From Calditrichia bacterium (lineage in GTDB: Bacteria; Calditrichota; Calditrichia; JAJRVZ01): a stretch of DNA of 64,000 bases. The translations under genes and the position numbers were made by a program. Each line of letters starts with the position of its first letter. The stretch's first letter is position 1. The notes under the pieces are model-generated. The model saw only the letters and a list, made by a program, of their open reading frames with translations. It made no database searches and was not told the origin of the DNA. Shown piece by piece: positions 31,443 to 52,900 of this stretch. The stretch spans positions 55,841 to 119,840 of the forward strand of contig CAVXXB010000002.1 in assembly GCA_963765585.1 (NCBI GenBank), written 5' to 3'.

Positions 31443-31485
31443 ATTTTTTTCCCTTTTTTTGTTAAGGTAGTGTAAAAAATAACCA

Positions 31486-31525
31486 CCCCGTACAAGTCTG
31501 GCTTCGCCATATTTACGGGGCAGGC
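31486..31525. repeat. Short palindromic element CCCCGTA..TGGCTTCGCCA..TACGGGGCAGGC
   Basis: Outer stem CCCCGTA/TACGGGG, inner stem TGGC/GCCA. Confidence 0.55.
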
Positions 31526-31807
31526 AGAATACACGGAGTAAATTATTATTATTATTTATGTTAATGCTATTTCTAATCATCTCCCCTCTGTGATCTCTTA
31601 TAAGATAACTCTCTTTATTCCTTCTTTTAATTTGTCAACATTAAAATTGATCAACAATCCGACTTTTAGATTTTCTACTCTCAGGTAAGATATTCTTTTA
31701 GAGTTCTCAGAGTTTTCCTCTGAGTGCTCTGTGGTTTCATCTTTTAATCCTGTCTTTCATTTTTTCATAGAACTTTTGACACTACCTTTGTTAATGTGAT
31801 GATAGAC

Positions 31808-31910
31808 CTCGGCCTCGGCACGAGATACTCGTTTCTTAACATCCATACGATATATAATAATTAAAAACCAGGACCAAGAGCCGAGAGACGAGAACCGAGT
31901 GCCGAGATAC
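31808..31910. repeat. Degenerate 7-mer repeats
   Basis: aggacca agagccg agagacg agaaccg agtgccg agatac; partner cctcggcctcggc. Confidence 0.5.
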
Positions 31911-31912
31911 TT

Positions 31913-32929: not shown

Positions 32930-32941
32930 TCTCTCCTTTTA

Positions 32942-35772: not shown

Positions 35773-35912
35773 TGATTTCTCGTATGTGATGATTAGACAG
35801 ATTTTTAATTTCACATATTTTTTATAACAAATCTACTTTTTTTTTGACTTTGGCTTTCGGCTCTTAGCAATCGGCTGCCGGCAAAGAGTAGAACCATCAC
35901 ACTTCATTTCCT

Positions 35913-35978
35913 GTCATCTTGCAGAGATCCTCCCGGATTGCCGGTGCCCAACCGACCGGAAGATTCCTTTGGAATGAC
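35913..35978. repeat. REP-like palindromic element, copy B
   Basis: GTCATCTTGCAGAGATC...AGATTCCTTTGGAATGAC, homologous to 22495-22560. Confidence 0.75.
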
Positions 35979-36184
35979 AAGCTGGTGCTTGTAACTAATC
36001 CCAGTATCCTGCATCTTTCAGCGAAAAAATCTTAATTATTCTGAAATTATTTAAGAATTTGCGTTAATTTACCGAATAAAAGATATACAATACCTATAGC
36101 GGGTAAAATCAATAAAGCCGGATTTGTTCTATTCCCAGCTGGTGATAACCGGAGAAACATCATTTACTTAAAAGTTGTATATAG

Positions 36185-38056
36185 ATGAACAAAACTAAAC
36201 GACTCTCTGTCTTACTGATTGATGATGATGAATACATCAGAGGTTATGTTAAGTCACTTATTAAAGAACGTAAATATGAAGTAATTGAAGCTGGCGATGG
36301 ATTCACCGGAATAAAGTTGTTTAAAGTGAAGCAACCGGATTTGGTTCTTGTCGACCTTCGTATGCCGGAGATAGATGGCTTGGATGTTCTTTTAAAACTC
36401 AAATCCATCTCTCCAGAGACTCCATTAATTGTAATTTCCGGGACTGGTGATATTAAAGACGCAGTTGAAGCAGTCCGAAGAGGCGCCTGGGAATATGTCA
36501 TCAAACCAATTTCCGATCCAAATCATTTATATTCTGCCATAGACCGGGCGCTGGAACGCTTCCGGCTCATTTCTGAAAACCGGGCATATCAAAATAATCT
36601 TGAAGAACAGGTTCAGCAAAGGACAGAGGAATTAATTAAGTTAAACAGGCAACTCACCACCAGTGAGGCCCGATATCGCAGTGTCGTAGAAGATCAAACC
36701 GAAACCATATCGCGTTTTCTTGCCGATGGAAGCCGCACATTTGTAAACCAAAGTTATTGCCGATTGTTTGGAAAGTCGCAAAAAGATTTATTAGGTAGCG
36801 ATTTTTTCGCCCAAATATATGAGGAAGACATAGACAAAGTTAAAAAGAAGATCTATTCGCTTTCCGTACAAAATCCTGTGAAGGTTGATGAGCGGCGGGT
36901 AAAACTCCCGAACGGTAAGATCAGCTGGCAACAGGTTACTGACCGTATCATTCTGGATAAAAAAAAGAAAATAGTTGAATACCAGGCTGTAGGCGTTGAT
37001 ATCACTGAACGGAAGAATGGCGAAAAGGCCTTACGTGAGGCTTTGGAAGAGGTTGAGAGGTTAAAAAACAAACTCCAGGATGAAGTTGTTTATTTGCGCG
37101 AAGAAATAAAATTGGAACATAATTTCGAAGAAATTATTGGCAAGAGCGATGCCATCAAGCAGGTTTTTAATCAGGTTGAGATGGTAACTCCAAATGATAC
37201 AACGGTGCTTATCCTGGGTGAAACAGGAACCGGAAAAGAATTGATAGCCCGGGCAGTTCATAATCTGAGTTCCCGAAGGAAAAGACCTCTGGTAAAAATA
37301 AATTGTGCTGCACTGCCGGTGAATCTCATTGAAAGCGAACTGTTTGGTCACGAGAAAGGTGCGTTTACCGGAGCAGTAACTACCAGGATCGGGCGATTTG
37401 AACTTGCGGATGGTACATCCATTTTTCTTGATGAAATTGGTGAACTCCCGCTTGAACTGCAAACAAAATTATTACGTGTCTTGCAGGAAGGGGAATTTGA
37501 GAGAGTCGGTGGTGACGAAACAATAAAAGTGGATGTGCGTGTGATTGCCGCAACCAACCGGGATCTCCCAAATTCAGTTAAAACCGGAGAATTCAGAGAG
37601 GACCTATTTTACAGATTGAATGTTTTTCCCATTGACATGCCTCCCTTGCGTGAGCGGAAAGCAGATATCCCGCTCTTAGCAAGCTATTTTGCCCAAAAAT
37701 ATGGTCGAAAACAAGGAAAAATATTTGAAAAAATTTCTCAAAGCACAATTAAGTATCTGCAACAATTGGAATGGGAAGGTAATATCCGCGAACTGGAAAA
37801 TATAATTGAACGGGCGGTAATTTTCAGCAAACCACCTGAATTAAAACTAAATCAACAATTTTCATTTTCATCCGAAATAAAATCGCCATCGGCAGAATCC
37901 AGATCACTACAAGCAATAGAACGAGAGCACATTACAAAAATTCTCGATGAAAAAAACTGGGTTATCCAAGGCGAAGGCGGTGCCGCAAAAGTACTGGGGC
38001 TACACCCCAACACACTACGCTCCAGAATGCAGAAACTCAGCATATCTAAATCCTGA
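36185..38056 (+). CDS. Sigma54-dependent activator REC-PAS-AAA+-HTH (NtrC/FhlA-like)
   Basis: REC (IDDD, DLRMP, KP), PAS, GETGTGKE, ESELFGHEKGAFTGA, FREDLFYRL, GAAKVLGLHPNTLRSRM. Confidence 0.94.
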   Translation: MNKTKRLSVLLIDDDEYIRGYVKSLIKERKYEVIEAGDGFTGIKLFKVKQPDLVLVDLRMPEIDGLDVLLKLKSISPETPLIVISGTGDIKDAVEAVRRGAWEYVIKPISDPNHLYSAIDRALERFRLISENRAYQNNLEEQVQQRTEELIKLNRQLTTSEARYRSVVEDQTETISRFLADGSRTFVNQSYCRLFGKSQKDLLGSDFFAQIYEEDIDKVKKKIYSLSVQNPVKVDERRVKLPNGKISWQQVTDRIILDKKKKIVEYQAVGVDITERKNGEKALREALEEVERLKNKLQDEVVYLREEIKLEHNFEEIIGKSDAIKQVFNQVEMVTPNDTTVLILGETGTGKELIARAVHNLSSRRKRPLVKINCAALPVNLIESELFGHEKGAFTGAVTTRIGRFELADGTSIFLDEIGELPLELQTKLLRVLQEGEFERVGGDETIKVDVRVIAATNRDLPNSVKTGEFREDLFYRLNVFPIDMPPLRERKADIPLLASYFAQKYGRKQGKIFEKISQSTIKYLQQLEWEGNIRELENIIERAVIFSKPPELKLNQQFSFSSEIKSPSAESRSLQAIEREHITKILDEKNWVIQGEGGAAKVLGLHPNTLRSRMQKLSISKS

Positions 38057-38080
38057 TAATAATTTTCTGTTAGTAAACTT

Positions 38081-38110
38081 CGATATTTCGTATCGTCACG
38101 ATATATCGTG
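38081..38110. promoter_or_regulatory. Tandem upstream activating sequences for a sigma54 activator
   Basis: CGATATTTCG (38081-38090) and perfect palindrome CACGATATATCGTG (38097-38110), ~100-130 bp upstream of the -24/-12 element. Confidence 0.65.
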
Positions 38111-38211
38111 GTGAATATGTAACTTCATTCTCTTACCTGCCAAACTCTTATTTTCCCTAAATAATTATTAATTCTATAGTTACAATGCTACTAAATGACC
38201 TATTTATTTTT

Positions 38212-38226
38212 TGGCATGGTTATTGT
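38212..38226 (+). promoter_or_regulatory. Sigma54 (-24/-12) promoter
   Basis: TGGCATGGTTATTGT vs consensus TGGCACGNNNNTTGC with correct spacing, 80 bp before the porin start. Confidence 0.7.
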
Positions 38227-38307
38227 CTAATATCCCACCGAATTCGAATTAAAGGATGTAATATTTTAACACAGTTAAAATAGTAAGTATGGAGAGGAGA
38301 ACAGACA

Positions 38308-39627
38308 ATGAATTATGGAAGCAAAACTATCCTGGTATTGCTCATGTTAGCGGCGACTATATTTGCACAGGTTGACGGTATTCAAATTCATGGGTTTATT
38401 TCACAGGGCTATTTGAAGAGTAGTGACAACAACTTTCTTGGCCGCACTGCCGAGGGAACATTTGAGTTCAATGAAGTTGGTCTTAATTTTTCAACAGAAT
38501 TAACTGATAACCTGCGTGTCGGTATGCAGTTTTTTGCCCGGGATTTAGGTTATCTCGGTAATGATAATATCGTGGTAGACTGGGCATATGGTGACTATCG
38601 GTATTTTGACTGGTTTGGTGTCCGCGGTGGAAAAATGAAAATGCCGCTGGGCTTATATAATGAAATTAGAGATATCGATATGCTGCGGACCAGCATCCTG
38701 ATGCCTCAGGGAGTATATAACGAAAGTTGGCGTGATACGTTCAATGCCATCAAGGGTATCGGTATTTATGGTACCACCAGAATTGGTGTACTCGGATCAA
38801 TCAGTTATCAGGGCCAGATAGGTGTACTCAATGTAGGTCCGGAAACAGGTATGAACAAATACATTGAAGACCAATTATTTGCCCACATGGACGAGTACAA
38901 ACTTTCGACTTCATATGTTGCAAATCTGGCATGGGAGACACCTTTACAGGGCTTTAAACTTGCAACCAGCGTTTTTTCATCTGATATGACAATCAGCGGT
39001 ATAACAGAAGATTCTGATTTTTGGCGTAACCAGACAATCAATGCAGTCGGCGATGTTCTGGAAACATACGGACTGGATCGTCCTCAATCGTATGAGGAGG
39101 CATTGGCCATAGCGGAAACTTTTGGTGTTGATGCCGATTTGGTTGGGATTCCCATCATTCAGGAGCTAAATGATAATTTCGGATTATGGTTCTCCGGAGA
39201 ATTCACATATGAAAATTTAATTCTGGCCGCAGAGTATTTTACCCTGTCAACCCAGGTAGCCACGTCCAATCCGGATCTGGGCGAATTACGTTCATTTGAA
39301 AATGAATTGGGTGGATTTTATGGAAGTATCGGCTATCGGTTCAACAATTGGTTCGAAGCCGCATCTTATTATTCCGAATACTATACGGATCTGAGTGATA
39401 AAGACGGAAAGGGATATGCAGGTGTTTATGGTCTTCCCGCGTCTAACTCATATCTGAAAGACACGGCCTTATCGCTGAGATTTGATGTAAACTCACATTG
39501 GATTATCAAAGTGGAAGGACATAGCATGAACGGTACCGCAGTAATGTTCCGCCAGGATCAGGACGATCCAAAAGACGTAAAGAAAGACTGGATGCTTTTT
39601 GCAGGTAAACTAACTTATAACTTCTAG
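38308..39627 (+). CDS. Outer membrane beta-barrel (porin-like) protein
   Basis: Signal peptide, IHGFISQG, VDWAYGDY, RGGKMKMPLGLYNE, alternating amphipathic strands, terminal YNF. Confidence 0.75.
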   Translation: MNYGSKTILVLLMLAATIFAQVDGIQIHGFISQGYLKSSDNNFLGRTAEGTFEFNEVGLNFSTELTDNLRVGMQFFARDLGYLGNDNIVVDWAYGDYRYFDWFGVRGGKMKMPLGLYNEIRDIDMLRTSILMPQGVYNESWRDTFNAIKGIGIYGTTRIGVLGSISYQGQIGVLNVGPETGMNKYIEDQLFAHMDEYKLSTSYVANLAWETPLQGFKLATSVFSSDMTISGITEDSDFWRNQTINAVGDVLETYGLDRPQSYEEALAIAETFGVDADLVGIPIIQELNDNFGLWFSGEFTYENLILAAEYFTLSTQVATSNPDLGELRSFENELGGFYGSIGYRFNNWFEAASYYSEYYTDLSDKDGKGYAGVYGLPASNSYLKDTALSLRFDVNSHWIIKVEGHSMNGTAVMFRQDQDDPKDVKKDWMLFAGKLTYNF

Positions 39628-39648
39628 GTATGCGGGAGGAAAATTAAT

Positions 39649-40086
39649 ATGCGAAATTTGAACATAAATATAGTGATTTTCATGATACTTCTGGCATACG
39701 GTTTTGGATATAGCCAATCATCAAATTCATACAAGGTAATTGTGAATAAGACCAACAGCATAGAAGAAATTGATCAATCAGATCTATCCGATATGTTTTT
39801 AAAAAACCTTACAAAATGGCCGGATAAGAAAAAAATCACACCGGTTGATTTAAACAGTGAGTCAAAAACCAGAGCATCTTTTTCAAAATCTGTGCACAAT
39901 AAATCTTTCAACGCCATAAAAGCGTACTGGCAGAAAAAAATCTTTACCGGAAAGGGAGTGCCACCCGTTGAGAAAAACAGTGACGCCGAGGTGATTGCTT
40001 TTGTAAAGGAGAATGAAGGTGCCATCGGATATATTTCTTCAGATGCCAGTTCCAGTGGTGTCAAAGTTATTAAAGTGAAGGAATAA
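39649..40086 (+). CDS. Small periplasmic PBP2/PstS-like protein (half-size substrate-binding fold)
   Basis: Signal peptide; VIVNKTN...LSDMFL..KWPD...YWQKKIFTGKG.PP...VIAFVKENEGAIGYI. Confidence 0.75.
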   Translation: MRNLNINIVIFMILLAYGFGYSQSSNSYKVIVNKTNSIEEIDQSDLSDMFLKNLTKWPDKKKITPVDLNSESKTRASFSKSVHNKSFNAIKAYWQKKIFTGKGVPPVEKNSDAEVIAFVKENEGAIGYISSDASSSGVKVIKVKE

Positions 40087-40118
40087 GTTCGCATGATGAG
40101 TACAGGTAAAAATTACCA

Positions 40119-40149
40119 GTCGCTGCCAGTCTGTTATATTGGCAGCGAC
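40119..40149 (+). other. Intra-operon stem-loop without U-tract
   Basis: GTCGCTGCCA / TGGCAGCGAC 10-bp perfect stem between PBP and kinase genes. Confidence 0.55.
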
Positions 40150-40214
40150 GAATTCACAATTAAGAAGAAAGTCTTCTAATTCATAAAAATTCAATGCTAT
40201 AGGGAATTATTATC

Positions 40215-43200
40215 ATGTTCAAAAATATAAAAATCAGAACTAAAATAGTCTTAATGCCGGCACTGGCAGGTGCCGCATTCTTAACGATCCTGATTATTAA
40301 TACAATGCTGGGATCGCAAAACAATCAACTATTGGTTTCAATAGAGAATGGGTATTTCCCTGCGCTGGAGATGAGCCGTGAATTGGAAGGCATTCTGGCT
40401 CAGGTGCAGCGGAATATGCAGTATGCCGCTTCTGCCATGGATGAGGAAGTTCTGACTGAAACAGATTTGCTTCGCGATAACTTTCTCGCCATAGTAGAAA
40501 ACAGCAATGATAATCCGGTTTTAAATCAGGCAGAAATATTATTTCTGGAACAGGCATTCAGTGACTACTATCCGTTGGCGCGTAAGACCACCTTACAAAT
40601 GATAAATGAGGGTCTGGTCGAGGAAGTTATACAGAATCTCGATGCGATGCAGGAGAAATACAATCTCATTCAAAACAAACTCAATGTCATGATTAGTGAC
40701 AAAAAACTGGATATGGCAAAGGCAATTGGGGATGCACAAAGTAATCAGGGATCCATTGTACTTTCAATAATTATAATTACCCTACTGAGTCTTTTACTTT
40801 TGCTCTTTATATCTTTTGTTTTTATTCGCTCCATCACCCGACCGCTTCAGCAAATTGTTGGGGCGGCAAATCAACTGGCAAACGGGAATGTAGACATCGA
40901 ATTAGCCATCGAACAAAATGACGAGATAGGTGAACTAGCGAAGACTACATCAAGTTTGGTTGAAACATCCAGACAACTTTCACTCGCTGCCGATGCAATC
41001 GGTCAGGGTGACTATCATGTGGATATCAATGTTCGAAGTGAAACAGATATTCTTGGAAAATCCCTGCAGCGCATGAAAAAAAATTTATTGACCATGAGTA
41101 CCGAAAACGAACATGATAACTGGTTAAAAACAGGTCAGGCGGAATTAAGTGATAAAATGCGCGGTGATCAGAATATTGTTGAGGTGGCTCAGAATGTACT
41201 GAATTATCTCGCCAAGTATATAAATGCCCAGGTTGGAGCCGTCTATTTGAGTGACGGAACCGATAAACTAAAACTGACCGGCAGTTATGCCTACAAAAAG
41301 AGAAAAAATCTTTCCAGTGAATTCACACTGGGAGAGGGATTGGTTGGACAGTGCGCACTGGAGAAAAAATCCATCGTGATCACAGACGTTCCCAACGACT
41401 ATATCAGGATCAATTCAGGAGTTGGGGAACATGCACCATTAAATTTAATGGTAACACCGCTCTTATACGATGGCCAATTGCATGGCGTCATTGAATTAGG
41501 TGGATTTCATGAGTTTACTGATCTGGAAATGAATTTTCTGGAACAGGCAACTGAAAATATCGCCATCGCTCTCCAGAGTGCCGTTTCCAGATTTAAAGTG
41601 AAGGAACTCTTAGAAGAAACACAAAACCAGGCTGCAGAGTTGCAGGCCCAACAGGAAGAACTCAGAGTTACCAATGAAGAACTGGAAGAACAGACTCAGA
41701 ATCTAAGAAATTCCGAAGAAGATTTGAAATCACAGCAAGAGGAACTGAAAAAATCTAATACGGAATTGGAGAGACAGACTGATGCACTTAAAGAACGACA
41801 AACTGAAATTGAGAATAAAAACCTGGAACTGGAACAGGCAAGAAAAGAAATTGAGAAAAAGGCTGATGAGCTGGAACTCAGCAGTAAATATAAATCTGAG
41901 TTTCTGGCTAATATGTCTCACGAATTACGAACACCATTAAATAGTATTCAGATACTTTCAAAACTATTAAGTGAAAATAAAGATAAAAATCTGACTGAAA
42001 AGCAGATGAATTTTGCAAAAACAATAAATTCATCCGGATCTGATCTGCTTGGTCTGATCAACGAAATTCTTGATTTGTCCAAAATAGAAGCCGGTAAAAT
42101 GAATTTAAATCTGGAAGATATGACCCTGGGTTACCTACCCAGCTACATTCAGCAGAACTTTGAACATCTAACATCGGAAAAAGGCTTATATCTTAAAGTT
42201 GAAATGGATAAAGATTTGCCAAAAAATATTCGGTCCGACCGACAGCGCGTGGAACAAATATTGAAGAACTTATTATCCAATGCGATAAAGTTTACTGAAA
42301 ATGGCGGCGTCTCGGTAAAAATCAACAGACCTTCTGCGGAACTGAATTTAAAACAATCCGGTTTATCACCCGACTCTTCAATATGTATTTCGGTTATTGA
42401 CAGCGGTATAGGTATACCGGATGAAAAGAAACAACTGATATTCCACGCCTTTCAGCAGGCCGACGGTACAACCAGCCGTAAATTTGGCGGAACTGGTTTG
42501 GGATTATCGATTTCATTGCAACTTGCCAAATTAATGGGTGGTGAAATACAGGTTGCCAGTGAAATTAATGAAGGAAGTACATTCCGTCTCCTTCTGCCCG
42601 ATATCTGCCTGCAGGGAGCAGAGACCTCGACACCGTCTCACGAAGAAATGGCTGATACAGAGATAGAAAAACCGGTAAAAGATGAAATCGAAAATGTTTC
42701 CCTCTCAATAATGCCTCAAAAGAAAGAGGCTAACCCGAATCAGGTTAACGAAATAAGGGATGACCGGCTGGAGATCCTGGATGATGATCGATCTATTCTG
42801 ATTATTGAAGATGACGCAAACTTTGCCAAGATACTCTTCGATTTTACAAGGGAAAAGGGATTTAAATGTCTGTTAGCTGAGGATGGTGAAGCCGGGTTGC
42901 AGTTGGCCAATCAATATAAACCCAGTGCCATTTTACTGGATATCGGTCTGCCACGTATTGATGGCTGGACTGTGATGGAACGGCTTAAAGAAAATACAGA
43001 AACCAGGCACATCCCGGTCTATTTTATCTCAGGTCAGGATAAACAGATGGCGGCTATGAATATGGGTGCTATTGGATATCTACTAAAACCGGTTAGTCAG
43101 GAAGGATTGAATGATGCCTTTGCAAAAATTGACAAGATAATATCGAAAGATATAAAAAAATTGCTGGTTGTGGAAGATGATCAGGTCATGCGTGAGAGCA

Positions 43201-43961
43201 TTATAGAACTGATTGGTAATAGTGACGTCTCAATTACGGCCGCCGATAAGGGTGAAGAAGCATTCAAATTACTCCGTTCGGAAGATTTTGATTGCATGGT
43301 ACTGGATCTGGGCCTAAGTGATATATCAGGATTTGATCTGATAGAAAAGATTAAAAGCGAAGATCAAATTCCCAGAACCCCAATCATAATATATACAGGC
43401 AAGGAATTGAACAAGAAAGAAGAGACCAGGCTGCGCAAACATGCAGAAAGTATCATCGTCAAGGGCGCAAAATCGCCGGAACGACTACTTGATGAAGTAA
43501 GCCTCTTTCTGCATCGGGTTGAAAATAATTTACCAAAAAATGAGCATAGACCTGGCAAACTGCCGCAGGACAAAGGAGAAAATGTTTTTAAGGGTAAGAA
43601 AATCCTGCTTGCCGATGATGATGTTCGTAACATTTTTGCTCTGTCCAGTGTTCTGGAAGAAAAAGAAATGGAGGTTGTTGTCGCCGAGAACGGCCAGGAG
43701 GCAATTAATTTACTCGGTGAGAATGGCGATGTGAACCTGATCCTGATGGATATTATGATGCCGGAAATGGATGGATTTGAGGCAATGCGCAAGATAAGGG
43801 AAAACAAAAAATATTCCAAGTTGCCTATTATTGCATTAACGGCCAAAGCCATGAAAGGCGACCGGCAAAAATGTATCACCGCCGGTGCGAATGATTATTT
43901 ATCCAAACCAGTGGATGTAGAGAAACTTCTGTCACTGTTACAGGTTTGGCTTTACAAATAG
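40215..43961 (+). CDS. Hybrid sensor kinase: TM-periplasmic domain-TM-HAMP-GAF-coiled coil-HisKA-HATPase-3xREC
   Basis: DEIGEL HAMP, GEGLVGQCALE GAF, QQEELRVTNEELEEQ coil, ANMSHELRTPLN, NLLSNAIKF, GGTGLGL, three REC domains. Confidence 0.93.
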   Translation: MFKNIKIRTKIVLMPALAGAAFLTILIINTMLGSQNNQLLVSIENGYFPALEMSRELEGILAQVQRNMQYAASAMDEEVLTETDLLRDNFLAIVENSNDNPVLNQAEILFLEQAFSDYYPLARKTTLQMINEGLVEEVIQNLDAMQEKYNLIQNKLNVMISDKKLDMAKAIGDAQSNQGSIVLSIIIITLLSLLLLLFISFVFIRSITRPLQQIVGAANQLANGNVDIELAIEQNDEIGELAKTTSSLVETSRQLSLAADAIGQGDYHVDINVRSETDILGKSLQRMKKNLLTMSTENEHDNWLKTGQAELSDKMRGDQNIVEVAQNVLNYLAKYINAQVGAVYLSDGTDKLKLTGSYAYKKRKNLSSEFTLGEGLVGQCALEKKSIVITDVPNDYIRINSGVGEHAPLNLMVTPLLYDGQLHGVIELGGFHEFTDLEMNFLEQATENIAIALQSAVSRFKVKELLEETQNQAAELQAQQEELRVTNEELEEQTQNLRNSEEDLKSQQEELKKSNTELERQTDALKERQTEIENKNLELEQARKEIEKKADELELSSKYKSEFLANMSHELRTPLNSIQILSKLLSENKDKNLTEKQMNFAKTINSSGSDLLGLINEILDLSKIEAGKMNLNLEDMTLGYLPSYIQQNFEHLTSEKGLYLKVEMDKDLPKNIRSDRQRVEQILKNLLSNAIKFTENGGVSVKINRPSAELNLKQSGLSPDSSICISVIDSGIGIPDEKKQLIFHAFQQADGTTSRKFGGTGLGLSISLQLAKLMGGEIQVASEINEGSTFRLLLPDICLQGAETSTPSHEEMADTEIEKPVKDEIENVSLSIMPQKKEANPNQVNEIRDDRLEILDDDRSILIIEDDANFAKILFDFTREKGFKCLLAEDGEAGLQLANQYKPSAILLDIGLPRIDGWTVMERLKENTETRHIPVYFISGQDKQMAAMNMGAIGYLLKPVSQEGLNDAFAKIDKIISKDIKKLLVVEDDQVMRESIIELIGNSDVSITAADKGEEAFKLLRSEDFDCMVLDLGLSDISGFDLIEKIKSEDQIPRTPIIIYTGKELNKKEETRLRKHAESIIVKGAKSPERLLDEVSLFLHRVENNLPKNEHRPGKLPQDKGENVFKGKKILLADDDVRNIFALSSVLEEKEMEVVVAENGQEAINLLGENGDVNLILMDIMMPEMDGFEAMRKIRENKKYSKLPIIALTAKAMKGDRQKCITAGANDYLSKPVDVEKLLSLLQVWLYK

Positions 43962-43986
43962 AGAACTGATCTACTTTTAAGAGGAG

Positions 43987-44829
43987 ATGATGACGAGTAT
44001 TAATCAAATTGAACTGAATCTGTTATTAGAAGCCATTTATCAAAAATATGGATATGATTTCAGAGATTATTCCAGAGCCTCATTAAAAAGAAGAATCTCT
44101 ATGCGACAATCGGCCTCAAGAATTCAGAGTATGGCAGAAATGCAACACAGGTTGTTACACGATAGCGGCTTTTTTAACACCCTGCTGGCCGACATGTCCA
44201 TCAATGTAACGGAAATGTTTCGTGATCCAAATTTTTATAAAGCAATAAGAGAATCGGTGGTACCCATTTTAAAAACATACCCATTTATAAAAATGTGGCA
44301 TGCTGGATGTTCGACTGGCGAAGAAGTGTATGCAATGGCCATTTTACTAAAAGAGGAAGGACTGCTGGACAGATCAACGATTTATGCCACCGATTTTAAT
44401 GAGATTGTCCTGGGAAAAGCACGTGAAGGTATATATTCTATGGATCACTTGAAAGAATATTCATCAAATTATCAAATCGCCGGCGGTAAAGCGGCACTGA
44501 CTGATTACTATAAGACAAAAGATAACACAGCAGCTATGGATCATACCTTAAAAAAACGAATCGTGTTTGCTCCGCATAACCTCGCGACAGATCATGTATT
44601 TGGCGAGATGCATTTGATAATGTGCCGGAATGTGTTGATTTATTTCAATAAAGATCTGCAGGATCGATCCATAGGTTTATTCTATGATAGTCTTGTCCGT
44701 AAAGGTATTCTCTGTCTGGGCAGTAAAGAAAGTATTAGATTTTCCGGTCATTCTGAAAATTTTGAAGAATTAATTGCCCATGAAAAAATTTATCAGAAGA
44801 TGTCTATCCGGGAGACAAAGCATGTATGA
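43987..44829 (+). CDS. cheR: CheR-type protein-glutamate O-methyltransferase
   Basis: YGYDFRDYS, NVTEMFRDP, WHAGCSTGEE, ATD, CRNVLIYF. Confidence 0.93.
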   Translation: MMTSINQIELNLLLEAIYQKYGYDFRDYSRASLKRRISMRQSASRIQSMAEMQHRLLHDSGFFNTLLADMSINVTEMFRDPNFYKAIRESVVPILKTYPFIKMWHAGCSTGEEVYAMAILLKEEGLLDRSTIYATDFNEIVLGKAREGIYSMDHLKEYSSNYQIAGGKAALTDYYKTKDNTAAMDHTLKKRIVFAPHNLATDHVFGEMHLIMCRNVLIYFNKDLQDRSIGLFYDSLVRKGILCLGSKESIRFSGHSENFEELIAHEKIYQKMSIRETKHV

Positions 44830-45382
44830 CGCTATTGTTATCGGTGTTTCATTAGGCGGTATGAACGCCTTAAGAGAATTACTGGCTAATCTCAAAGATG
44901 AAGTTTCAATCCCAATTCTGATCGTGCAGCATCTTCATGCCCGATGTGATAATTATCTTGCAAATTATCTTGATAAATTCTCAAATCGGAATATAAAAGA
45001 AGCGGAAGAAAAAGAAGTGATAACAGCAAATAATGTATATCTGGCGCCAGCAAATTATCATTTAATCGTGGAAGAGGATAGAACAATTTCCTTGACGACA
45101 GATGATCCGGTAAACTATTGCCGCCCGTCGATAGATATACTTTTTGATTCCGCCGCCGAGACGTATGCATCAAAACTGATTGGTATAATCCTGACAGGTG
45201 CAAATAACGACGGGACCAATGGAATGAAAAACATCAAAAAAAATGGCGGTTTGCTTGTTGTACAGGATCCTACAACCGCAGAAGCCAGTACCATGCCAAG
45301 TTCGGTTATTACGCAAACAAAAGTTGATTATATACTATCACTGAAAGAGATATCTGATCTTTTAAATGTGATAGCGAAGTAA
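44822..45382 (+). CDS. cheB: CheB-type methylesterase without REC domain
   Basis: GVSLGG (Ser), VQHL (His), RPSID, LTGANNDG (Asp), VQDP...MP; ATG overlaps cheR stop. Confidence 0.92.
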   Translation: MYDAIVIGVSLGGMNALRELLANLKDEVSIPILIVQHLHARCDNYLANYLDKFSNRNIKEAEEKEVITANNVYLAPANYHLIVEEDRTISLTTDDPVNYCRPSIDILFDSAAETYASKLIGIILTGANNDGTNGMKNIKKNGGLLVVQDPTTAEASTMPSSVITQTKVDYILSLKEISDLLNVIAK

Positions 45383-45413
45383 AATTAAATAATGGATTGG
45401 GAGGGAAAATCCA

Positions 45414-47237
45414 GTGATTGTAAAGAATAAAGAACCAAATATGCAAAAGATTTTACTGGTCGATGACCGGCCTGAGAATCTAATGTCGTTAGAAAGCATT
45501 TTAGAAAATGATAATCTGATATTTCTTAAAGCCCTTTCGGGTGAAGAAGCGTTAAAAGTATTATTGAAAGAGGATGTCTCTCTGATACTACTTGATGTTC
45601 AGATGCCCGGAATCGATGGATTTGAGACTGCCGGATTGATCAGAGGTACACAAAAAACCCGTCATATTCCTATCATCTTTGTTACTGCGATTAGCAAAGA
45701 ACAAAAACATATTTTTAAAGGATACGAATCCGGTGCGGTAGATTATCTGTTCAAGCCAGTCGAGCCGGAAATAGTGCGCAGCAAAGTAAAAATACTTTTA
45801 GATCTTGACCAGCAAAGAAGACTTGTAGAGCATCAGAATCAAAAATTAGTCATGGCTAAAAGAAATACGGATAACATCTTAACCAATGTTGAAGAAGGAA
45901 TCTTCCTTCTGGGAGTTGATTTTAAAATTAAACCACAATATTCAAAAGCACTTGTCAAAATGTTTAAGCAAACAGAACTATCCCAATTAGATATTCGCAC
46001 GTTTCTGAAGGAAAATCTGGACGATGATTTATATGAGAGTGCGATTGACTATCTGGATCTGATGTTCTGTGAGGATCTCAATGAACTCAATTTTGTGGAT
46101 CTAAATCCTTTTATTGACTGTCCTTTTTTCACCGGGAAATCGGGCGAGGAACAAAAAAGATTCCTCACATTTAGATTTAAACGAATCTATAACGAAAACA
46201 AAATTGAGGAGTTAATGGTAACTGTCAGAGATAATACCACCCAGGTTATCCTGGAGAAAGAACTGCATAAAAGTAAAGCGGATTCGCTGCGCCAAATCGC
46301 ATTATTGCATATTCTCAAGGTTGAGCCGCAATTATTAAAGGAATTTATCAAACAGACCGAAAGCGAATTAAGTTTAATCACATCAAGACTTGAAAAGTTT
46401 GCTAAAAATAAAAGTGCGGATGAAGATATAAATTTAGTCTACAGCACGATGCACTCGGTAAAGGGAAATTCCAGCCTGCTGGATTTTCGTTTCATCGCCG
46501 AAAAGGCACATCAATTTGAAGAAATTTTAAAAGAACTGTACCCGGCCTCAATGGATATGCAAGAGAAAATTATGCAGTTGACTAAGATTATAAATGAAAT
46601 TGATCATACCCTGATCGACATTAAATCTCTGGTGGATCAAATCAGATCATTTTATGAACACTACAATAATGGACAGGTAGCTGCCGGAAATTTGATTATT
46701 AAAGCTGTCACCAATGTGATTGAGAAATTGGAGAAGGAATTTGATACAGATATTTCATTTGATCATTCGAATTTTGAAGAAAGCATCGTTTCAAATAAAG
46801 ACTTTTTACAAGTTAAAGATATCCTGATTCAGTTAACCAGAAATTCACTTTATCACGGTTTGGCTGATGGTCCTGCAAAAGAAAAGAAATCAAAAAAAGA
46901 AAAACTGGAGATCTCTTTAACGGGTAAGGCAAACGGGAAACACAGGATAATAAAATTTGAAGATAACGGTAATGGTATTCAGCACGAAAAACTGCGATCA
47001 AAGGCAATTGCTTCCAAAAAATTTACTGAGGGTGAAATCAGCAGTTGGAGTGATAAGCAAATTGCAGATCTCATATTTGAACCGGGAATTTCTACAGGTG
47101 AAAGTACGAGTAAAGTCGCCGGTCGCGGCATAGGAATGACATTGGTGAGAGATAAACTACAGGAAATGCAGGGACAAATTGAAGTTCATTCTGAACCGGG
47201 AAAATTCTGTAAATTTGAAATATTTTTACCAAACTAG
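45414..47237 (+). CDS. REC + PAS-like + HPt + CheA-type HATPase (no CheW/P5 domain)
   Basis: REC VDD..DVQMP..KP; HPt MHSVKG; CheA-like P4 RNSLYHG, DNGNGI, IFEPGIST..VAGRGIGM; ends at FEIFLPN. Confidence 0.82.
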   Translation: MIVKNKEPNMQKILLVDDRPENLMSLESILENDNLIFLKALSGEEALKVLLKEDVSLILLDVQMPGIDGFETAGLIRGTQKTRHIPIIFVTAISKEQKHIFKGYESGAVDYLFKPVEPEIVRSKVKILLDLDQQRRLVEHQNQKLVMAKRNTDNILTNVEEGIFLLGVDFKIKPQYSKALVKMFKQTELSQLDIRTFLKENLDDDLYESAIDYLDLMFCEDLNELNFVDLNPFIDCPFFTGKSGEEQKRFLTFRFKRIYNENKIEELMVTVRDNTTQVILEKELHKSKADSLRQIALLHILKVEPQLLKEFIKQTESELSLITSRLEKFAKNKSADEDINLVYSTMHSVKGNSSLLDFRFIAEKAHQFEEILKELYPASMDMQEKIMQLTKIINEIDHTLIDIKSLVDQIRSFYEHYNNGQVAAGNLIIKAVTNVIEKLEKEFDTDISFDHSNFEESIVSNKDFLQVKDILIQLTRNSLYHGLADGPAKEKKSKKEKLEISLTGKANGKHRIIKFEDNGNGIQHEKLRSKAIASKKFTEGEISSWSDKQIADLIFEPGISTGESTSKVAGRGIGMTLVRDKLQEMQGQIEVHSEPGKFCKFEIFLPN

Positions 47238-47296
47238 TGAATGGACGATAGCGTAAGTTCTTTTGTGATAAAGATTAATATATATTCCGACCGGCC

Positions 47297-49298
47297 CTAA
47301 GTTTTATCTAAGACCTCTCTTACCAGTGAGGAAATTGAGTAAAAACTATAGGGCTTTTTTAGGAAATGAATCCCTTCGTCAAGAAATTCCTTGGAAACGA
47401 TTTGATTGTCAGAATAACCGGAAGTATAAATAATTTTTATTCCTGGCAACAATTTTTCCGCTTTTTGCGCCAACTCTTTTCCACCCATTTCCGGCATGAC
47501 AATATCTGTGATAAGCAATTGCGGGTGAATTTTTTTATGCTTTATTATTTCCAGTGCTTCTTTTCCATTTACGGCCTGATACATCTTGTAACCCATAGAA
47601 TTGAGTGCTTCAAAAATAAAAGAACGTACGCCATCATCATCTTCTGTGATCAGGATACATTCATTCCCGCCTTTAACTTCTGGTTCCACCTTCGTGGTCA
47701 CAGATTTAGACTTTGTTTCGGCAACCGGCCAGAGTATACTGAAAGTGGCACCCTCACCTTCCACAGAATCTACTTCAATGGATGCATTATTTTGTTTTAC
47801 AATCCCATAAACTGTCGACAAGCCTAATCCCGTTCCTTTACTTTCTTCCTTGGTTGTAAAAAATGGTTCAAATATTTTAGTGATCGTATCTTTATCCATT
47901 CCAACACCCGTATCGCTAACAGAAAATTCGATACAGGTCCTCTCTCCACCTCCGGTTTGGGAACTCAAAGAGCGCTCATTAAAGTAAGAAGATTTAGTTT
48001 CTATTCTGATCAGTTTTTCAGTTCGAGGGCCAGACTGAGAATGAATGGCGTCACGGGCATTCACTATCAAATTTATTAATATTTGCTCCATCTGATGTGG
48101 GTCAGAAAGAATTGCCGGTAAGTTCTCACCAAGATTTAGTTCTATCTGTATATCCTCACCAATCAGACGTTTCAGCATTTTAATTGAATCATTTATTATC
48201 GTATTTATATCGACAATCAAAGGCTGTACAATTTGTTTTCTGCTAAAAGCAAGAAGTTGACGCGTGAGTGCTTCTGCCCTAAAAGACGCTTTTAGGATTT
48301 CTTCCAGCTTTCCCCTGAATTCGTCCGGAAAATTCTCATTTGAGGCCAAAAGATTACTGTATCCCGAGATGACTGTCAATAAATTATTAAAATCGTGTGC
48401 TACGCCACCTGCTAACTGGCCGATCGCTTCCATCTTTTGGGACTGAATTAATTGTTTTTCGAGGAGTTGACTTTCAGTGACATCCCGGTAATTAATTACA
48501 ATTCCAGCGACACTTTGAAGTTCAAGCATATTCGTCATGGATCCCTCAAGGTACCGCAAGGAGCCATCCTGGTGCTGATGGCGTAGTTTGAGAGTTTCGG
48601 TCTTACCAGGATATTTTTTTATCTCAGCCACTTGCTTATTAAAACTATCTTTATCTTCCAGATGGAGATGATCTAAAACACTTTCATTTATTTCATAACC
48701 AGAGGAATAACCGGATACACTAGTATGAGATGGACTGGCATATTTTATTTTTTTTGCATCATCCATGATCAGTACAACATCTTTTGCCATTTCAATAATA
48801 CTGCGGAAATATTCTTCACTATTCTTGAGCGCCACATTCTTTTGTTGCAATTCCCTGGTTTGTTCCAGAACTTTTTGTTCCAGATTATTTTGATAATCCC
48901 TGTTATCTTTTATGAGCTGGGCGCGCTCAAGTGCAGATTCCACAGCATGAAGAAGAACTGACATATCCTGTATTGGCTTAAGGATATAATTCCAGGCTCC
49001 CAGACGGATTGCCTCTATAGCATCTCCAATTATCCCGGTTCCGGAAATTACAATTATTGGAGTATCCGGAGAGTTTTTGCACACATCTTTTAAGACATCC
49101 AGTCCATCTACCTCCGGCATACGTAAATCGACTAATATCAAATCCGGATTAAATTTCCTGAACTTTTCCAATCCGATTTTACCATTCTCAGCAGTAATGA
49201 CTTTATACTCATAATCTTCAAAAAAGCCTTTGGATGCTTAACCGAATCGCAGGTTCATCATCTATATGCAGTATAAGCGGAGACGTTTTTGTGGACAA
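47297..49298 (-). CDS. Hybrid kinase REC-PAS-HisKA-HATPase-REC; +1 frameshift near 49232 hides the N-terminus
   Basis: TTG start at 49298 (STKTSPLILHIDDE), ORF 47297..49171 continues DLRMP, AGGVAHDFNN, FFTTK..GTGLGL, C-terminal REC. Confidence 0.87.
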
Positions 49299-49302
49299 TT
49301 TC

Positions 49303-49695
49303 CTATCCCTTCTTGAACAAATTATTAATTTTCTCATTGAATATATTCAGATCACGCACAGGCTTCTTTATAATCTGACTTTGTTTCAATCCCAGATTTG
49401 CCAGATTGTCTGGCAAAACAAACGCAACGGATCCGGTATGTATCAAATATTTTATATCAGGACATATTTCATGTGTCTTTTCAATTAGTTTTGTGCCGTC
49501 TATACCAGGCAGACGGATATCAACAATCATAAGATCCGGTTGCTCTTTATTAATTTGAATCAGTGCATCCTCTGCCGAAAATACCGAACTGACCTGAAAT
49601 TCCTGGTCGATCAAATGTTCTGATAAACTTACACAAACCGACTCTTCATCATCTACGATTAGAATTCTGATATTTTTATTCATAACAACCTGCAC
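49303..49695 (-). CDS. Single-domain response regulator
   Basis: IVDDE, VDIRLPG, IHTG, KKP. Confidence 0.88.
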   Translation of the reverse strand: MQVVMNKNIRILIVDDEESVCVSLSEHLIDQEFQVSSVFSAEDALIQINKEQPDLMIVDIRLPGIDGTKLIEKTHEICPDIKYLIHTGSVAFVLPDNLANLGLKQSQIIKKPVRDLNIFNEKINNLFKKG

Positions 49696-49972: not shown

Positions 49973-52900
49973 TCAGATTCGCGGAATATCCATACTGTGA
50001 TCAGCTGGTTTAAGATAAATTTTTACTTTTGTTCCCATACCCTTTGTCGATTCCAGTGACATTTTACCATTATGCTGTTCTGTTATTATGAAATATGATA
50101 CCGATAATCCCAGCCCTGTACCGACATCAACATCCTTAGTAGTGTAAAACGGTTCAAAAGCACGTTTACGTGTCTCCTCATCCATACCAGGACCATTATC
50201 CTCCAGTTCTAACTTTATCAATTCCCCCGTAAAATTTATTCGAAAAGTGAAACATGGTGCTTTTCCTTTTTGCTTCAGTTTTTTATTTTTAAACTTTTCC
50301 TCGGTCATTGCCTGAGCACCATTCTTAAGGATATTAAGAATAACCTGCTGCAAATTACTACGTTCACAGTACACTGGCGGAATATCTTTTTCGTAATGCC
50401 TGATTATCTTTATCTGACGAAAATCATATTTCTTTTTCAGATCGTAATCATTGGCAGCCAGTTCAACCGTATCATCCAAAATTTTAACAATATCGTGAGA
50501 TGATAATTTTGATTCACTCTTTCGGCTGAAACTTAGCATATTCTCGACAATCTTTGAGGCCCGGTTACCGGTTATATTTACAGCTTTTAGCATCTCAATT
50601 ATTTTTCGTTTTTCCATAAAGGCTTTAATTGCCTCAAAATTCGTTCCACATTCCTCAGCTGCAATTTCATTGGCTTTCATTTTGTTTGTCAGACGATTCA
50701 ATACAACCTGAGTGTTTTGTAATATACCGGCCAGGGGGTTATTAATCTCATGTGCCATACCTGCAGCCAATCCACCCACCGACATCATCTTTTCCGACTG
50801 GATCATCATCTCTTCCAGTTTTACCCGCTCGGTAACATCATCTATTCGAATTACCGCTCCCTCCACACCATTGCTGATCAGCGGATAGACTGTTAAATCT
50901 ACATACCCTAACTCATTTTTTATTACATTTTTTAATTGACTGTTCTTTATTACTTCACGAGATTCAATTGATTTTTTTATATTATCCAGTTGCCTGGTTA
51001 TATTGGGGAATACCTTTTCTAAAGGCTGTCCTGCGGCTTCGTTTTTATTAATACCAATGGTCTTTTCCGCTTCTTCATTCCAGTGCGTTATCTGGCATTC
51101 CTTGTTAACACCAATAACTATTGACGGCATAGAATTGATTATATTATTTATGTAGTTTCTGGCTTTTTCCAATTCCATTTCGGCTCGTTTTCTGTCATCT
51201 ATATTACGTACAACGGCAAGTACCCGATTTTTGCCCATTATTTCCGTACTTTTCAAGGCGACTTCAACCCAGAATAATTCGCCATTTTTTCTTTTTGCCT
51301 GCCATTCAAAAATTCGCGGACCATCACTAATTGTTTTACTGATCAGATTTTTTGCCTCTGATTCAGAGTACGAAGATTTACCGCTGCTTAAGTCACCAAT
51401 ATTCAGTTCCAGCCACTTCATTATAAGTATATCCATACATTTCAAGAGTTGTTTGATTTACATCCAGAATGGCGCCCGTGAATATATCATGGATAAAAAT
51501 TGCTTCACTGGTTGTATTGAAAATTTCACGATAATTGCGTTCACTTTGACGCAAGGCTGCTTCTGCAATCATCTTTTCATCAATTTCTTTCTGAAGTTCA
51601 GAGTTATGACGGCGGATATTAGTGGTACGATATTTATAAAATACAACCAATACACCAACAATGAAAGTAAGCATCAAACTCCGGAACCACCACATCTGCC
51701 AGAGGGGTGGATGAATAATGATATTTATCGAGTGCCCTTTCTCGTTCCAGATTCCATCCCGATTGGCGGCTCTTACTCTAAAAGTGTATTGTCCGGTCGG
51801 TAAATTGGTATAGGTAGCAAATCTTCGGTGACCCACATAATTCCATTCATTTTCAAATCCATCCATTATATATGCATATAGATTTTTTTCCGGGAAAATA
51901 TAGTGCAGACCGGCAAATTCAAATGAAATGACATTATCCTGGTATGAGAGATTTAATTCCTTGGTTGTTGTAATGGATTCTTTCAATCCAGGTCTGTCTT
52001 CATTTGTATCGACCAATCCGAACAGATTTGTTGAATATTTTAAAATCAGATAATACAACCTTGGGAACGATCAGATTCTCCCGAATACTATCGGGATGAA
52101 ACATATTAAATCCATCTATTCCTCCGAACAGAAAATATCCATCCTGTTTTTTCAGGTATGCGCCGGCGTTAAACTCATTATTCTGAAGACCATCGTTTAT
52201 GTCAAAATTTTTAAATTGTCTCTGTTCTGGGATTGAATTTGCTTATCCCCTTATTTGTGCTGAGCCAAAAATTACCCCGGTCATCCTCTAAAATACCATA
52301 GACTACATTATTTGGCAGACCATCATTTTCAAGGTAAGACTTAAACGTCTCATTTACCGGATCAAATTTTTTCAGTCCCCCCTGAAACGTACCTAACCAA
52401 ATTATACCCGATTTATCCTCATGAATGGAGAGAATAATATTATTAGTAATACTTTTATTATTACCTTTCATTTTATAATGTTTAAACTGTGGTTTCTTCT
52501 TATCCTGGTCTTTAAAAATCAGCCGGTTTAACCCTCCCCCCCAGGTACCGATCCACACAATACCTTTTTTATCGGTATATATAGATCGGACATCATTACT
52601 ACTCAAACTATTGAGATTATCAGGATCATGCCGGAAATTGATAAACTTGAACTTTTCATTTTCTTTTATATCCGGATCCAGATAAGTCAGGCCGTTATCG
52701 TAGGTTCCGATCCAGAGTTTTCCGGAATTATCTTTCTCAATCGTCATTACCAGATTGCCACTGAGGCTGTATTTATCCTTCGGATTATTCTTAAATCGCC
52801 TGAATTCATTGTTTTTTTTATCAAATCGGCTCAGACCTCCGCCATAGGTTGCCAGCCATATAAACCCAGAATTATCTTCACAAATTTTGTACACATAGTC

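Follow-up and report, generated by a model that had tools for sequence, protein, structure and literature searches.

A Calditrichia operon that joins a MAC2-like kinase to a porin, a single-lobe derivative of PstS and a sensor domain shared with chemoreceptors

The stretch of DNA analysed here (hereafter the window) comprises 64 kb of a Calditrichia bacterium (contig CAVXXB010000002.1, positions 55,841 to 119,840, assembly GCA_963765585.1) and carries, at 38308-47237 of its forward strand, six signalling genes that an earlier note had singled out from the letters alone. Three of their products or parts, namely an outer-membrane porin, a secreted one-lobed binding protein derived from PstS (sPBP) and the N-terminal sensor region of a hybrid histidine kinase (Nsens), form a trio that is, by sequence comparison, conserved among bacteria and portable between histidine kinases and methyl-accepting chemotaxis proteins (MCPs). 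It is probable that the six genes work as one operon, in which this trio drives a kinase resembling the MAC2 class of methyl-accepting coiled-coil (MAC) systems, CheR and CheB adapt that kinase, and a second kinase takes over the signal, with a neighbouring sigma54 activator as the likely endpoint. The role of the sPBP would then parallel that of MBP towards Tar, or of PstS towards CtpL. The features of the locus are as follows.

36185..38056, forward strand: enhancer-binding protein, REC-PAS-sigma54 AAA+-HTH_8 (Pfam Sigma54_activat 4.9e-74, Response_reg 5e-26, PAS, HTH_8), an orphan response regulator directly upstream of the operon
38081..38108, no strand: inverted repeat, candidate activator site (palindrome analysis)
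38212..38226, forward strand: -24/-12-like element (sequence and alignment with locus L021)
38308..39627, forward strand: outer-membrane porin, 439 aa (profile against PDB)
39649..40086, forward strand: sPBP, secreted single-lobe PstS-like protein, 145 aa (Pfam PBP_like_2, profile against PDB)
40119..40149, forward strand: 12-bp G+C-rich hairpin (folding energy)
40215..43961, forward strand: hybrid kinase, 1248 aa, with TM1, Nsens, TM2, two HAMP, GAF, coiled coil, HisKA, HATPase and three REC (Pfam, hydropathy; TM, transmembrane segment)
43987..44829, forward strand: CheR methyltransferase (Pfam CheR 2e-37, CheR_N 7e-12)
44822..45382, forward strand: CheB methylesterase domain without REC, 186 aa (CheB_methylest 1.1e-57, residues 21-196 of the longer open reading frame)
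45414..47237, forward strand: second kinase, 607 aa, with REC, about 170 aa of no recognised family, Hpt (P1-like) and CheA-type ATPase (Pfam, NCBIfam)

The earlier note's account of the layout stands: the list of open reading frames (ORFs), from which the genes were taken, gives six co-oriented forward-strand genes at the limits claimed (38308-39627, 39649-40086, 40215-43961, 43987-44829, 44774-45382 and 45414-47237), and Pfam and NCBIfam uphold the domain calls throughout. The intergenic gaps are, in gene order, 21, 128, 25, -8 and 31 nucleotides (nt). CheR has a ribosome-binding site and an ATG 25 nt after the kinase stop. The claimed overlap of the CheR stop with the CheB start is real but is smaller than the listed ORF, which starts at 44774, would give; the likely start is ATG 44822, overlapping the CheR stop in ATGTATGA and yielding 186 aa. 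CheB lacks a REC domain, as the note had said, since Pfam finds the methylesterase domain only. Among 48 ORFs scanned in the window (37 of at least 90 aa outside 36000-49200, plus 11 in and around the region), none contains an MCPsignal domain, a CheW or a canonical CheA, and the statement that there are no MCPs or CheW holds to that extent. The wording "without MCPs" nevertheless masks the main point, which is, by homology, that MCPs carry the sensor domain of this very kinase in most other loci.

That point comes from a neighbourhood survey of the kind the note had proposed for the porin-binding protein pair. Species-representative genomes were scanned with an sPBP profile, which gave 297 relatives, and 78 loci were kept (cited below by L numbers, individual proteins by P numbers); the resulting census covers 84 sPBP genes in 78 loci and the window, with neighbours identified by in-locus profiles and Pfam checks. 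Nsens stands for the N-terminal ~200 residues of the kinase in the window, including a periplasmic part of ~150 residues between two TM segments. Upstream of the 84 sPBP genes lie a member of the porin family in 61 cases, a TonB-dependent receptor in 6 (L026, L040, L045, L051, L062, L072), CheA or CheW in 8, an unrecognised gene in 6 and a contig end in 3. Downstream, an Nsens receptor follows directly in 61 of the 84, as an MCP in 42, a kinase in 15 and an Nsens cut by the contig end in 4; the rest are CheA (5), a further porin in tandem arrays (4), unrecognised genes (12) and contig ends (2). Where CheA follows, the Nsens-MCP comes further downstream in four of the five loci. Pfam searches of 50 downstream proteins returned 36 MCPs, 13 kinases and one truncated protein, the first ~200 residues of all of them belonging to no family, and homology to the window's Nsens is seen at the N-terminus of 42 MCPs and 14 further kinases encoded next to an sPBP. 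The linkage of the pair to signalling genes thus recurs elsewhere, as the note had anticipated for MCPs and kinases; its mention of diguanylate cyclases did not survive, none being present among the 50 downstream proteins or among 40 database relatives of Nsens.

The setting of the trio varies with lineage. Isolated porin-sPBP-MCP cassettes are found in Bacteroidota and Balneolota, whereas in Acidobacteriota, Gemmatimonadota and Nitrospirota the genes sit inside che operons of the order CheA-(CheW)-porin or TonB-dependent receptor-sPBP-MCP-CheW-CheR-CheB. Loci in which a kinase carries Nsens, the type to which the window belongs, come from Calditrichota, Myxococcota and KSB1; the closest relatives of the window locus in the sPBP-profile scan are the Calditrichota loci L021 and L036. 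There are also tandem arrangements: three porin-sPBP pairs followed by one MCP (L010, 4602-12246), two pairs followed by a kinase (L059, 6699-12167), three porins before one sPBP (L005, 374-4371; L070, 5966-12264) and a tandem duplicate of the whole trio (L029, 8805-16025). In a tree of Nsens, parsimony counts five changes of label between MCP and kinase, of which well-supported branches force only one.

Does the association hold when it is approached from the sensor rather than from the binding protein? In Pseudoalteromonas xiamenensis (L079, found with the distant sPBP P0054 among annotated plasmid and chromid records), the neighbours of a divergent MCP are annotated as "porin" and, at 135 aa, as "phosphate ABC transporter substrate-binding protein"; against the Nsens profile the MCP scores E 4e-20, and the porin scores E 1e-20 against the profile of its family. 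A search with the Nsens segment of this locus returned six Pseudoalteromonas records, and the three further ones examined all have a porin and an sPBP beside the MCP, convergently oriented, which brings the trio in this genus to four replicons, three of them retrieved through Nsens (records H6 and H9 fall outside the comparison). Since the genes are divergent in L079 and convergent in the other three replicons, their adjacency survives a change of orientation. A tblastn search of plasmids with the window Nsens gave no match.

As for Nsens itself, the window copy has no Pfam match at E<=1, and TarH appears in 5 of 52 Nsens sequences with a best E of 0.004. The Nsens profile meets only chance-level helical matches in the PDB, and hhalign finds no similarity to a 4HB_MCP_1 domain (probability 1.2%). 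An all-helical fold is likely, because 86% of sequence windows show alpha-helical periodicity.

The second member of the trio is half of a familiar protein. ORF 2 matches Pfam PBP_like_2 over profile positions 96-188 of 267 only, and the sPBP profile aligns with one lobe of the structures in the PDB (residues 104-217 of 290 in 1twy, 96-195 of 321 in Escherichia coli PstS), so that the earlier description of a 145-aa single-lobe protein resembling periplasmic binding proteins is confirmed; in place of the two-lobed PstS fold it has the equivalent of lobe 2 alone. Hydropathy shows a single N-terminal hydrophobic segment that fits a signal peptide, which leaves ~120 mature residues of the 145. 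The stretch "TREASSGTR" of 1twy contains the R..SGT residues (Arg, Ser-Gly-Thr) that we take to be the phosphate-binding motif of PstS. It aligns with "VDlkaNSavR" of the sPBP, and the position of R..SGT is held by D67..S72-x-V/T74 (among 52 sPBPs, D at position 67 in 46, S at 72 in 44, V or T at 74 in 43). From the one-lobe alignment and this substitution it follows that ORF 2 is a secreted, PstS-derived single lobe without R..SGT. Invariant are R75, F78, W94, Q95, F99, G101, P106, G127 and Y128, and the invariant motif YWQ..F.G...PP.E has no counterpart in PstS. The family is large, with 9060 representative clusters at E<=1e-3, 5261 at E<=1e-10 and 673 at E<=1e-30, and the top 150 relatives are mostly of 140-160 aa. 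No ABC transporter genes (pstCAB) occur among the window ORFs scanned or as direct neighbours of sPBP in the 84 cases; judged from sequence and gene context, the sPBP is not the PstS of a transporter.

The longer relatives of the sPBP are informative about where it may act. In P0073 to P0075, P0192, P0210, P0215 and P0234 a signal peptide, the sPBP, a linker and a TonB_C domain are joined in one chain, and in the ESM Atlas a cluster of 231 aa with TonB_C stands among the structural neighbours of the sPBP homologue P0025. The TonB_C domain contacts outer-membrane receptors. Together with the exchange of porin for TonB-dependent receptor, these fusions appear to tie the sPBP to an outer-membrane channel. 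The 744-aa P0117 combines a BlaR1-type M56 membrane peptidase domain with two C-terminal stretches that match the sPBP family profile, which places the sPBP, on domain evidence, in a second kind of transmembrane signal transducer. Other long relatives are tandem sPBP-sPBP proteins, whose form suggests that two lobes can make one cleft.

These proteins bear on an alternative in which the sPBP is not chiefly a carrier of solutes but a periplasmic adaptor seated on the outer-membrane channel, reporting the occupancy or conformation of that channel to the inner-membrane receptor by a logic like that of FecA-FecR. The TonB_C fusions in at least seven representatives and the TonB_C neighbour of P0025 speak for such trans-envelope coupling, as do the exchange of porin and TonB-dependent receptor while sPBP and Nsens stay, the fusion to a BlaR1-type transducer, the loss of the PstS-type anion site and the invariant YWQ..F.G...PP.E motif. 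However, porins have no plug or signalling domain known to move, the fusions may merely tether a solute-binding lobe near the channel exit, and the tandem proteins suit a cleft-forming solute binder better; we regard this alternative as unlikely. Its most general form is just as doubtful, namely that the sPBP is the signature of a widespread and so far undescribed mode of trans-envelope signalling, in which a one-lobed PstS-derived adaptor physically bridges porins or TonB-dependent receptors to chemoreceptors and kinases via Nsens; if it were true, Che or MAC pathways would read outer-membrane events directly. FecA-FecR-FecI signalling offers a comparison. There, too, the barrel gene goes together with genes for a cytoplasmic regulator and for a transducer exposed to the periplasm, and some of the surveyed loci have a TonB-dependent receptor and some sPBPs a TonB_C domain, but the operon lacks an anti-sigma and an extracytoplasmic function (ECF) sigma factor, the barrel in the window is a porin and not a TonB-dependent receptor, and signals leave through an MCP or a histidine kinase.

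The porin is the trio's outer-membrane member. The window protein (ORF 1) has no match in NCBIfam or, at E<=0.01, in Pfam; a profile built from 50 homologues nonetheless reaches solved porins in the PDB (OmpM-like 8bys/8bym, E 6e-7; OprP 2o4v, E 1.9e-5). A hydrophobic segment resembling a signal peptide covers residues 4-25 of the window protein by hydropathy, the family shows hydrophobic periodicity of the beta type, and a C-terminal Phe is invariant in the 50 family sequences. Two members touch Pfam Porin_O_P, L017 at 25.6 bits, above the cut-off of 20.9, and L001 at 19.9 bits, below it. By these profile matches ORF 1 is an outer-membrane porin distantly related to OprP and OmpM-type porins, and the earlier call of an outer-membrane barrel is backed by the structural matches, the periodicity and the terminal Phe.

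Given this ancestry, the porin and the sPBP might be no more than a co-regulated uptake pair, a nutrient acquisition module descended from OprP and PstS that is merely co-expressed with a kinase whose Nsens senses something else. Receptor-less pairs, single or arrayed in tandem (L010, L059, L056, L073, L080, L062, L072), fit this idea, and so does the strong hairpin, described below, that separates sPBP from the kinase gene and could uncouple the expression of the two. The likeness to the OprP/OprO and PstS pair of the Pho regulon is evident in that a porin and a PstS-related periplasmic protein are encoded together and the family profile reaches OprP; it ends with a window porin without a Pfam match, a one-lobed partner and the absence of pstCAB genes. 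We consider the uptake reading improbable, more so than trans-envelope coupling: ABC permease and ATPase genes are missing from the window ORFs and from the direct neighbours of sPBP, a one-lobed binding protein without the presumed phosphate motif is an unlikely partner for a transporter, the partner receptor keeps Nsens whatever its output, the pair is inserted between cheA/cheW and mcp in che operons, and the adjacency outlasts changes of orientation in Pseudoalteromonas. The receptor-less pair L080 (5917-7494), in the order sPBP-porin on the Alteromonas mediterranea plasmid MRG65-300, lies beside a type IV CRISPR-Cas (csf) cluster.

The third element, the kinase, joins this input to an adaptation module. 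By Pfam it contains two HAMP stretches, a GAF domain, HisKA, HATPase_c and three REC domains, and hydropathy places TM segments at residues 11-29 and 181-199 on either side of the periplasmic domain. PF28019.1 also figures in a precomputed Pfam list for this protein (P0080); it is found neither in its close relatives nor in the copy of Pfam scanned here. Between GAF and HisKA, residues 470-553 make up 13 heptads, each with L or I as its last residue, in which QQEEL/TNEEL motifs recur (the "EEL" coiled coil), and indels in this segment between relatives measure exactly 14 residues. Where Nsens-kinases have enough downstream sequence for comparison, the presence of the coil (~92-120 aa, GAF to HisKA) coincides with CheR directly after the kinase in 7 of 7 loci (the window, L036, L032, L058, L060, L063, L065), and its absence with the absence of CheR in 5 of 5 (L048, L059, L069, L070, L077).

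In the MAC2 class, as described in the available portions of two sources, receptor and kinase are united in one protein and associated with separate CheR and CheB (PMC6943060; bioRxiv 10.1101/2022.05.07.491037). The class goes back to Wuichet and Zhulin (2010), and MiST 3.0 made its own MAC2 profile (PMC6943060); MAC systems are known from genome analysis and were, according to the 2022 preprint, experimentally uncharacterised at that time (bioRxiv 10.1101/2022.05.07.491037). The window locus has the sensor and the kinase core in a single polypeptide (TM, periplasmic domain, TM, HAMP, GAF, HisKA, HATPase_c) and separate CheR and CheB genes beside it, the one 25 nt behind the kinase and the other overlapping the CheR stop. 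The resemblance to MAC systems that the earlier note had drawn from kinase, CheR and CheB without MCPs is therefore apt, and this half of the locus fits the MAC2 class as judged by the class description only. Further shared traits are the lack of MCP, CheW and canonical CheA in the locus and the long heptad coil before the kinase core; differences are that the MAC2 descriptions, in the portions of the sources at hand, do not mention an envelope trio or a second REC-Hpt-CheA-type kinase, and that the Myxococcota-type relatives have CheR without CheB.

Could CheR and CheB instead act elsewhere in the genome, on targets encoded outside the window, the hybrid kinase being an ordinary one and its coil just a signalling helix? 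The coil has no profile similarity to the cytoplasmic domain of Nsens-MCPs (hhalign probability 0.17%), so that the description "chemoreceptor-like" draws on the heptads and the linkage to CheR alone; the scan was confined to a 64-kb window of the genome, and the Myxococcota-type loci lack CheB. Yet the coil tracks CheR without exception among the loci compared, the exact two-heptad indels preserve the register, CheR and CheB are translationally coupled and lie directly behind the kinase gene, no MCP or CheW is present among the ORFs scanned in the 64 kb, and linkage to CheR and CheB is what defines the MAC class in the descriptions available (PMC6943060; bioRxiv 10.1101/2022.05.07.491037). 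We hold the action of CheR and CheB on distant targets to be very unlikely, and methylation of the coil remains our preferred account.

The sixth gene completes the architecture. The REC-HPt-HATPase protein that the earlier note had described is confirmed, with Hpt at 306-396 and HATPase_c at 466-606 in Pfam and matches to NCBIfam CheA_Halo (positions 362-536) and CheA PRK10547. It resembles CheA in its P1-like Hpt, which carries an HSVKG motif, and in a P4-type ATPase that scores best against CheA models; it differs in showing no match to a CheW-like (P5) or H-kinase_dim (P3) domain and no detectable P2, whereas the CheAs of che operons show P5 and P3, and in possessing an N-terminal REC followed by ~170 residues of no recognised family. 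In the window and in nine other Nsens-kinase loci a further kinase that begins with REC comes next, as REC-HisKA-HATPase (sometimes with PAS) in eight of the ten and as REC-x-Hpt-CheA-type ATPase in the remaining two, the window and L036; what is conserved, by these assignments, is the place of this gene and not the type of kinase. L036 is the same operon as that of the window, with a CheB that is likewise REC-less (187 aa), whereas che-operon loci have REC-CheB, and among coil-kinase loci CheB is found only in these two Calditrichota loci; five Myxococcota-type loci have the order porin-sPBP-kinase-CheR-second kinase, and in loci of that type the second kinase is REC-HisKA-HATPase. The combination, which had seemed undescribed, is accordingly not unique to the window. 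In the full-text literature searched, whose coverage leaves out most subscription journals, no description was found of a porin, a one-lobed PstS derivative and Nsens as a trio.

How might such an operon be controlled? A -24/-12-like element, TGGCATGGTTATTGT, reads TGGCAT-N5-TTGT at 38212-38226, with GT in place of the canonical GC dinucleotide at -12, and it aligns with TGGCAC-N5-TTGA in L021. The inverted repeat CGATATTTCGT-N6-ACGATATATCG (38081-38108), whose 11-nt arms are 91% complementary, lies some 118 nt further upstream, counted from the -24-like GG. The same palindrome is found in L021 at 661-702 with 18-nt arms, and there, too, a sigma54 AAA gene precedes the porin gene; the palindrome is a candidate binding site for the activator. 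Scored against the consensus that we take to be that of sigma54, the element has three mismatches and for that reason does not appear in a scan allowing two, and the scan of the window is in any case not above chance (31 sites found, 26.7 expected). The "sigma54 operon" of the earlier note thus stands in part: the element and palindrome kept in L021 and the activator gene directly upstream favour it, the chance-level scan and the non-canonical -12 disfavour it, and sigma54 control is plausible on promoter evidence that is weak to moderate. The activator gene upstream of the window operon is echoed by che-operon loci, which often have a kinase and a REC-sigma54 activator in front; in twelve of them (L017, L026, L027, L030, L040, L043, L054, L057, L068, L074, L075, L076) the two precede CheA-porin or TonB-dependent receptor-sPBP-MCP on the same strand, in L075 with the activator alone, and often together with one or two single REC genes.

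Inside the operon, a hairpin of 12 bp, rich in G+C and without a U tract or an Rfam match, occupies 40119-40149 in the 128 nt that separate sPBP from the kinase gene. The segment 40080-40220 folds with a minimum free energy of -39.5 kcal/mol (z -5.3), and none of 200 shuffled sequences was as stable. This may be a transcript-stabilising or attenuating element, and it could allow the kinases to be expressed at another level than the envelope proteins. In L036 the sPBP and kinase genes stand a mere 20 nt apart, which leaves no room for such a structure. No RNA family was matched when 35800-49400 was scanned against Rfam.

Taken through the envelope, the signalling chain that we favour would run in three layers. 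First, the porin, the secreted sPBP and the helical Nsens would form the input trio that MCPs use in most other bacteria surveyed. A solute, for which the OprP and PstS ancestry makes an oxyanion a possibility, would enter by way of the porin and be bound by the sPBP, two copies of which might pair to restore a cleft with two lobes; once loaded, the sPBP would dock on Nsens and switch the kinase. There is precedent for this in receptors stimulated by solute-binding proteins, among them MBP-Tar, PstS-CtpL of Pseudomonas aeruginosa, LuxP-LuxQ, TorT-TorS and BasB-BasT, as presented in the portion of the review available (PMC8050422). As in those systems, a gene of the binding-protein type stands beside, or is functionally linked with, that of a membrane-spanning MCP or kinase whose periplasmic domain is helical, and the sPBP shares its PstS ancestry with the CtpL case; it differs in being half a binding protein without the presumed R..SGT motif, in lacking an ABC transporter locus, and in having an outer-membrane channel gene of its own, and its tie to the receptor is one of gene linkage. 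Second, CheR would methylate and the REC-less CheB demethylate glutamates of the EEL coiled coil, providing adaptation. Third, the second kinase, which has an N-terminal REC, would pass the signal on along a putative phosphorelay, the likely endpoint being the adjacent orphan sigma54 activator. The activator may also drive the operon itself via the palindrome and the -24/-12-like element.

A number of observations weigh against this chain and keep our confidence in it from being higher. Because the loci were chosen through sPBP, the survey measures the probability of the neighbours given sPBP, and the reverse test starting from Nsens spans a single genus. Pairs of sPBP with a porin or a TonB-dependent receptor occur with no recognised receptor nearby (L012, L056, L073, L062, L072, L080), so the pair can evidently work without an Nsens receptor, and in L019 the MCP behind the pair has not Nsens but a 4HB_MCP_1 sensor of the ordinary kind. 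The genes around the Bacteroidota and Balneolota cassettes (sulfatases, GH2, housekeeping genes) have no shared theme and give no hint of a ligand. The contrast between loci with and without the coil comes from perhaps two to three independent lineages, the coil lacks the similarity to MCPs noted above, and CheB is missing from the five Myxococcota-type loci, which do have CheR. Finally, the three mismatches and the missing GC of the promoter element count here as well, and L036 has no activator gene upstream.

The remainder of the window contains several features of separate interest. Immediately beyond the operon, a convergent REC-PAS-HisKA-HATPase-REC kinase gene (47297-49171, reverse strand) ends 60 nt after it and is accompanied by a single-domain REC gene (49303-49695, reverse strand). 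Three genes within 11 kb appear broken. A Reg_prop/Y_Y_Y/PAS/HisKA-HATPase kinase at 49973-54143 (reverse strand) is apparently split into at least four ORFs (53232-54143, 52211-52918, 51393-52058, 49973-51445), which may reflect frameshifts, a pseudogene or assembly errors, and has an intact 1580-aa paralogue at 13094-17836. A 7TMR-DISM kinase at 54273-58802 (reverse strand) looks fragmented into 7TMR-DISMED2+7TM (57858-58802), 7TM-PAS-GAF-PAS (56510-57919), PAS (56187-56516) and HisKA-HATPase (54273-55202), and a glutamate/leucine dehydrogenase gene at 59612-60697 (forward strand) lies in two ORFs, 59612-60214 and 60365-60697. Elsewhere, a 400-aa ORF at 22611-23813 (reverse strand) joins an ECF-type sigma factor (Sigma70_r2, r4_2) to a class I methyltransferase domain, and an envelope cluster at 29923-35117 (reverse strand) encodes Omp85-family barrels (29923-31065, 32942-33982), a trypsin-PDZ protease (31913-32929), a DUF2141 protein and a patatin phospholipase with POTRA (33957-35117).

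The MAC2 class, from genome analysis, and receptors assisted by solute-binding proteins were already known; what appears new is the porin, the one-lobed PstS derivative and Nsens as a set shared by MCPs and kinases. For MAC systems, the locus supplies a defined input and a candidate methyl-accepting segment. For signalling more broadly, the trio looks like an input module that can be moved between MCPs and kinases and is spread over at least eight phyla, with cultured carriers in Pseudoalteromonas, Labilibacter, Fodinibius, Gracilimonas and Carboxylicivirga, and its Nsens constitutes a new sensor domain family to define. It also offers a candidate explanation for the thousands of ~140-aa proteins annotated as phosphate ABC transporter substrate-binding proteins that possess neither a second lobe nor the R..SGT residues presumed to hold phosphate in PstS.

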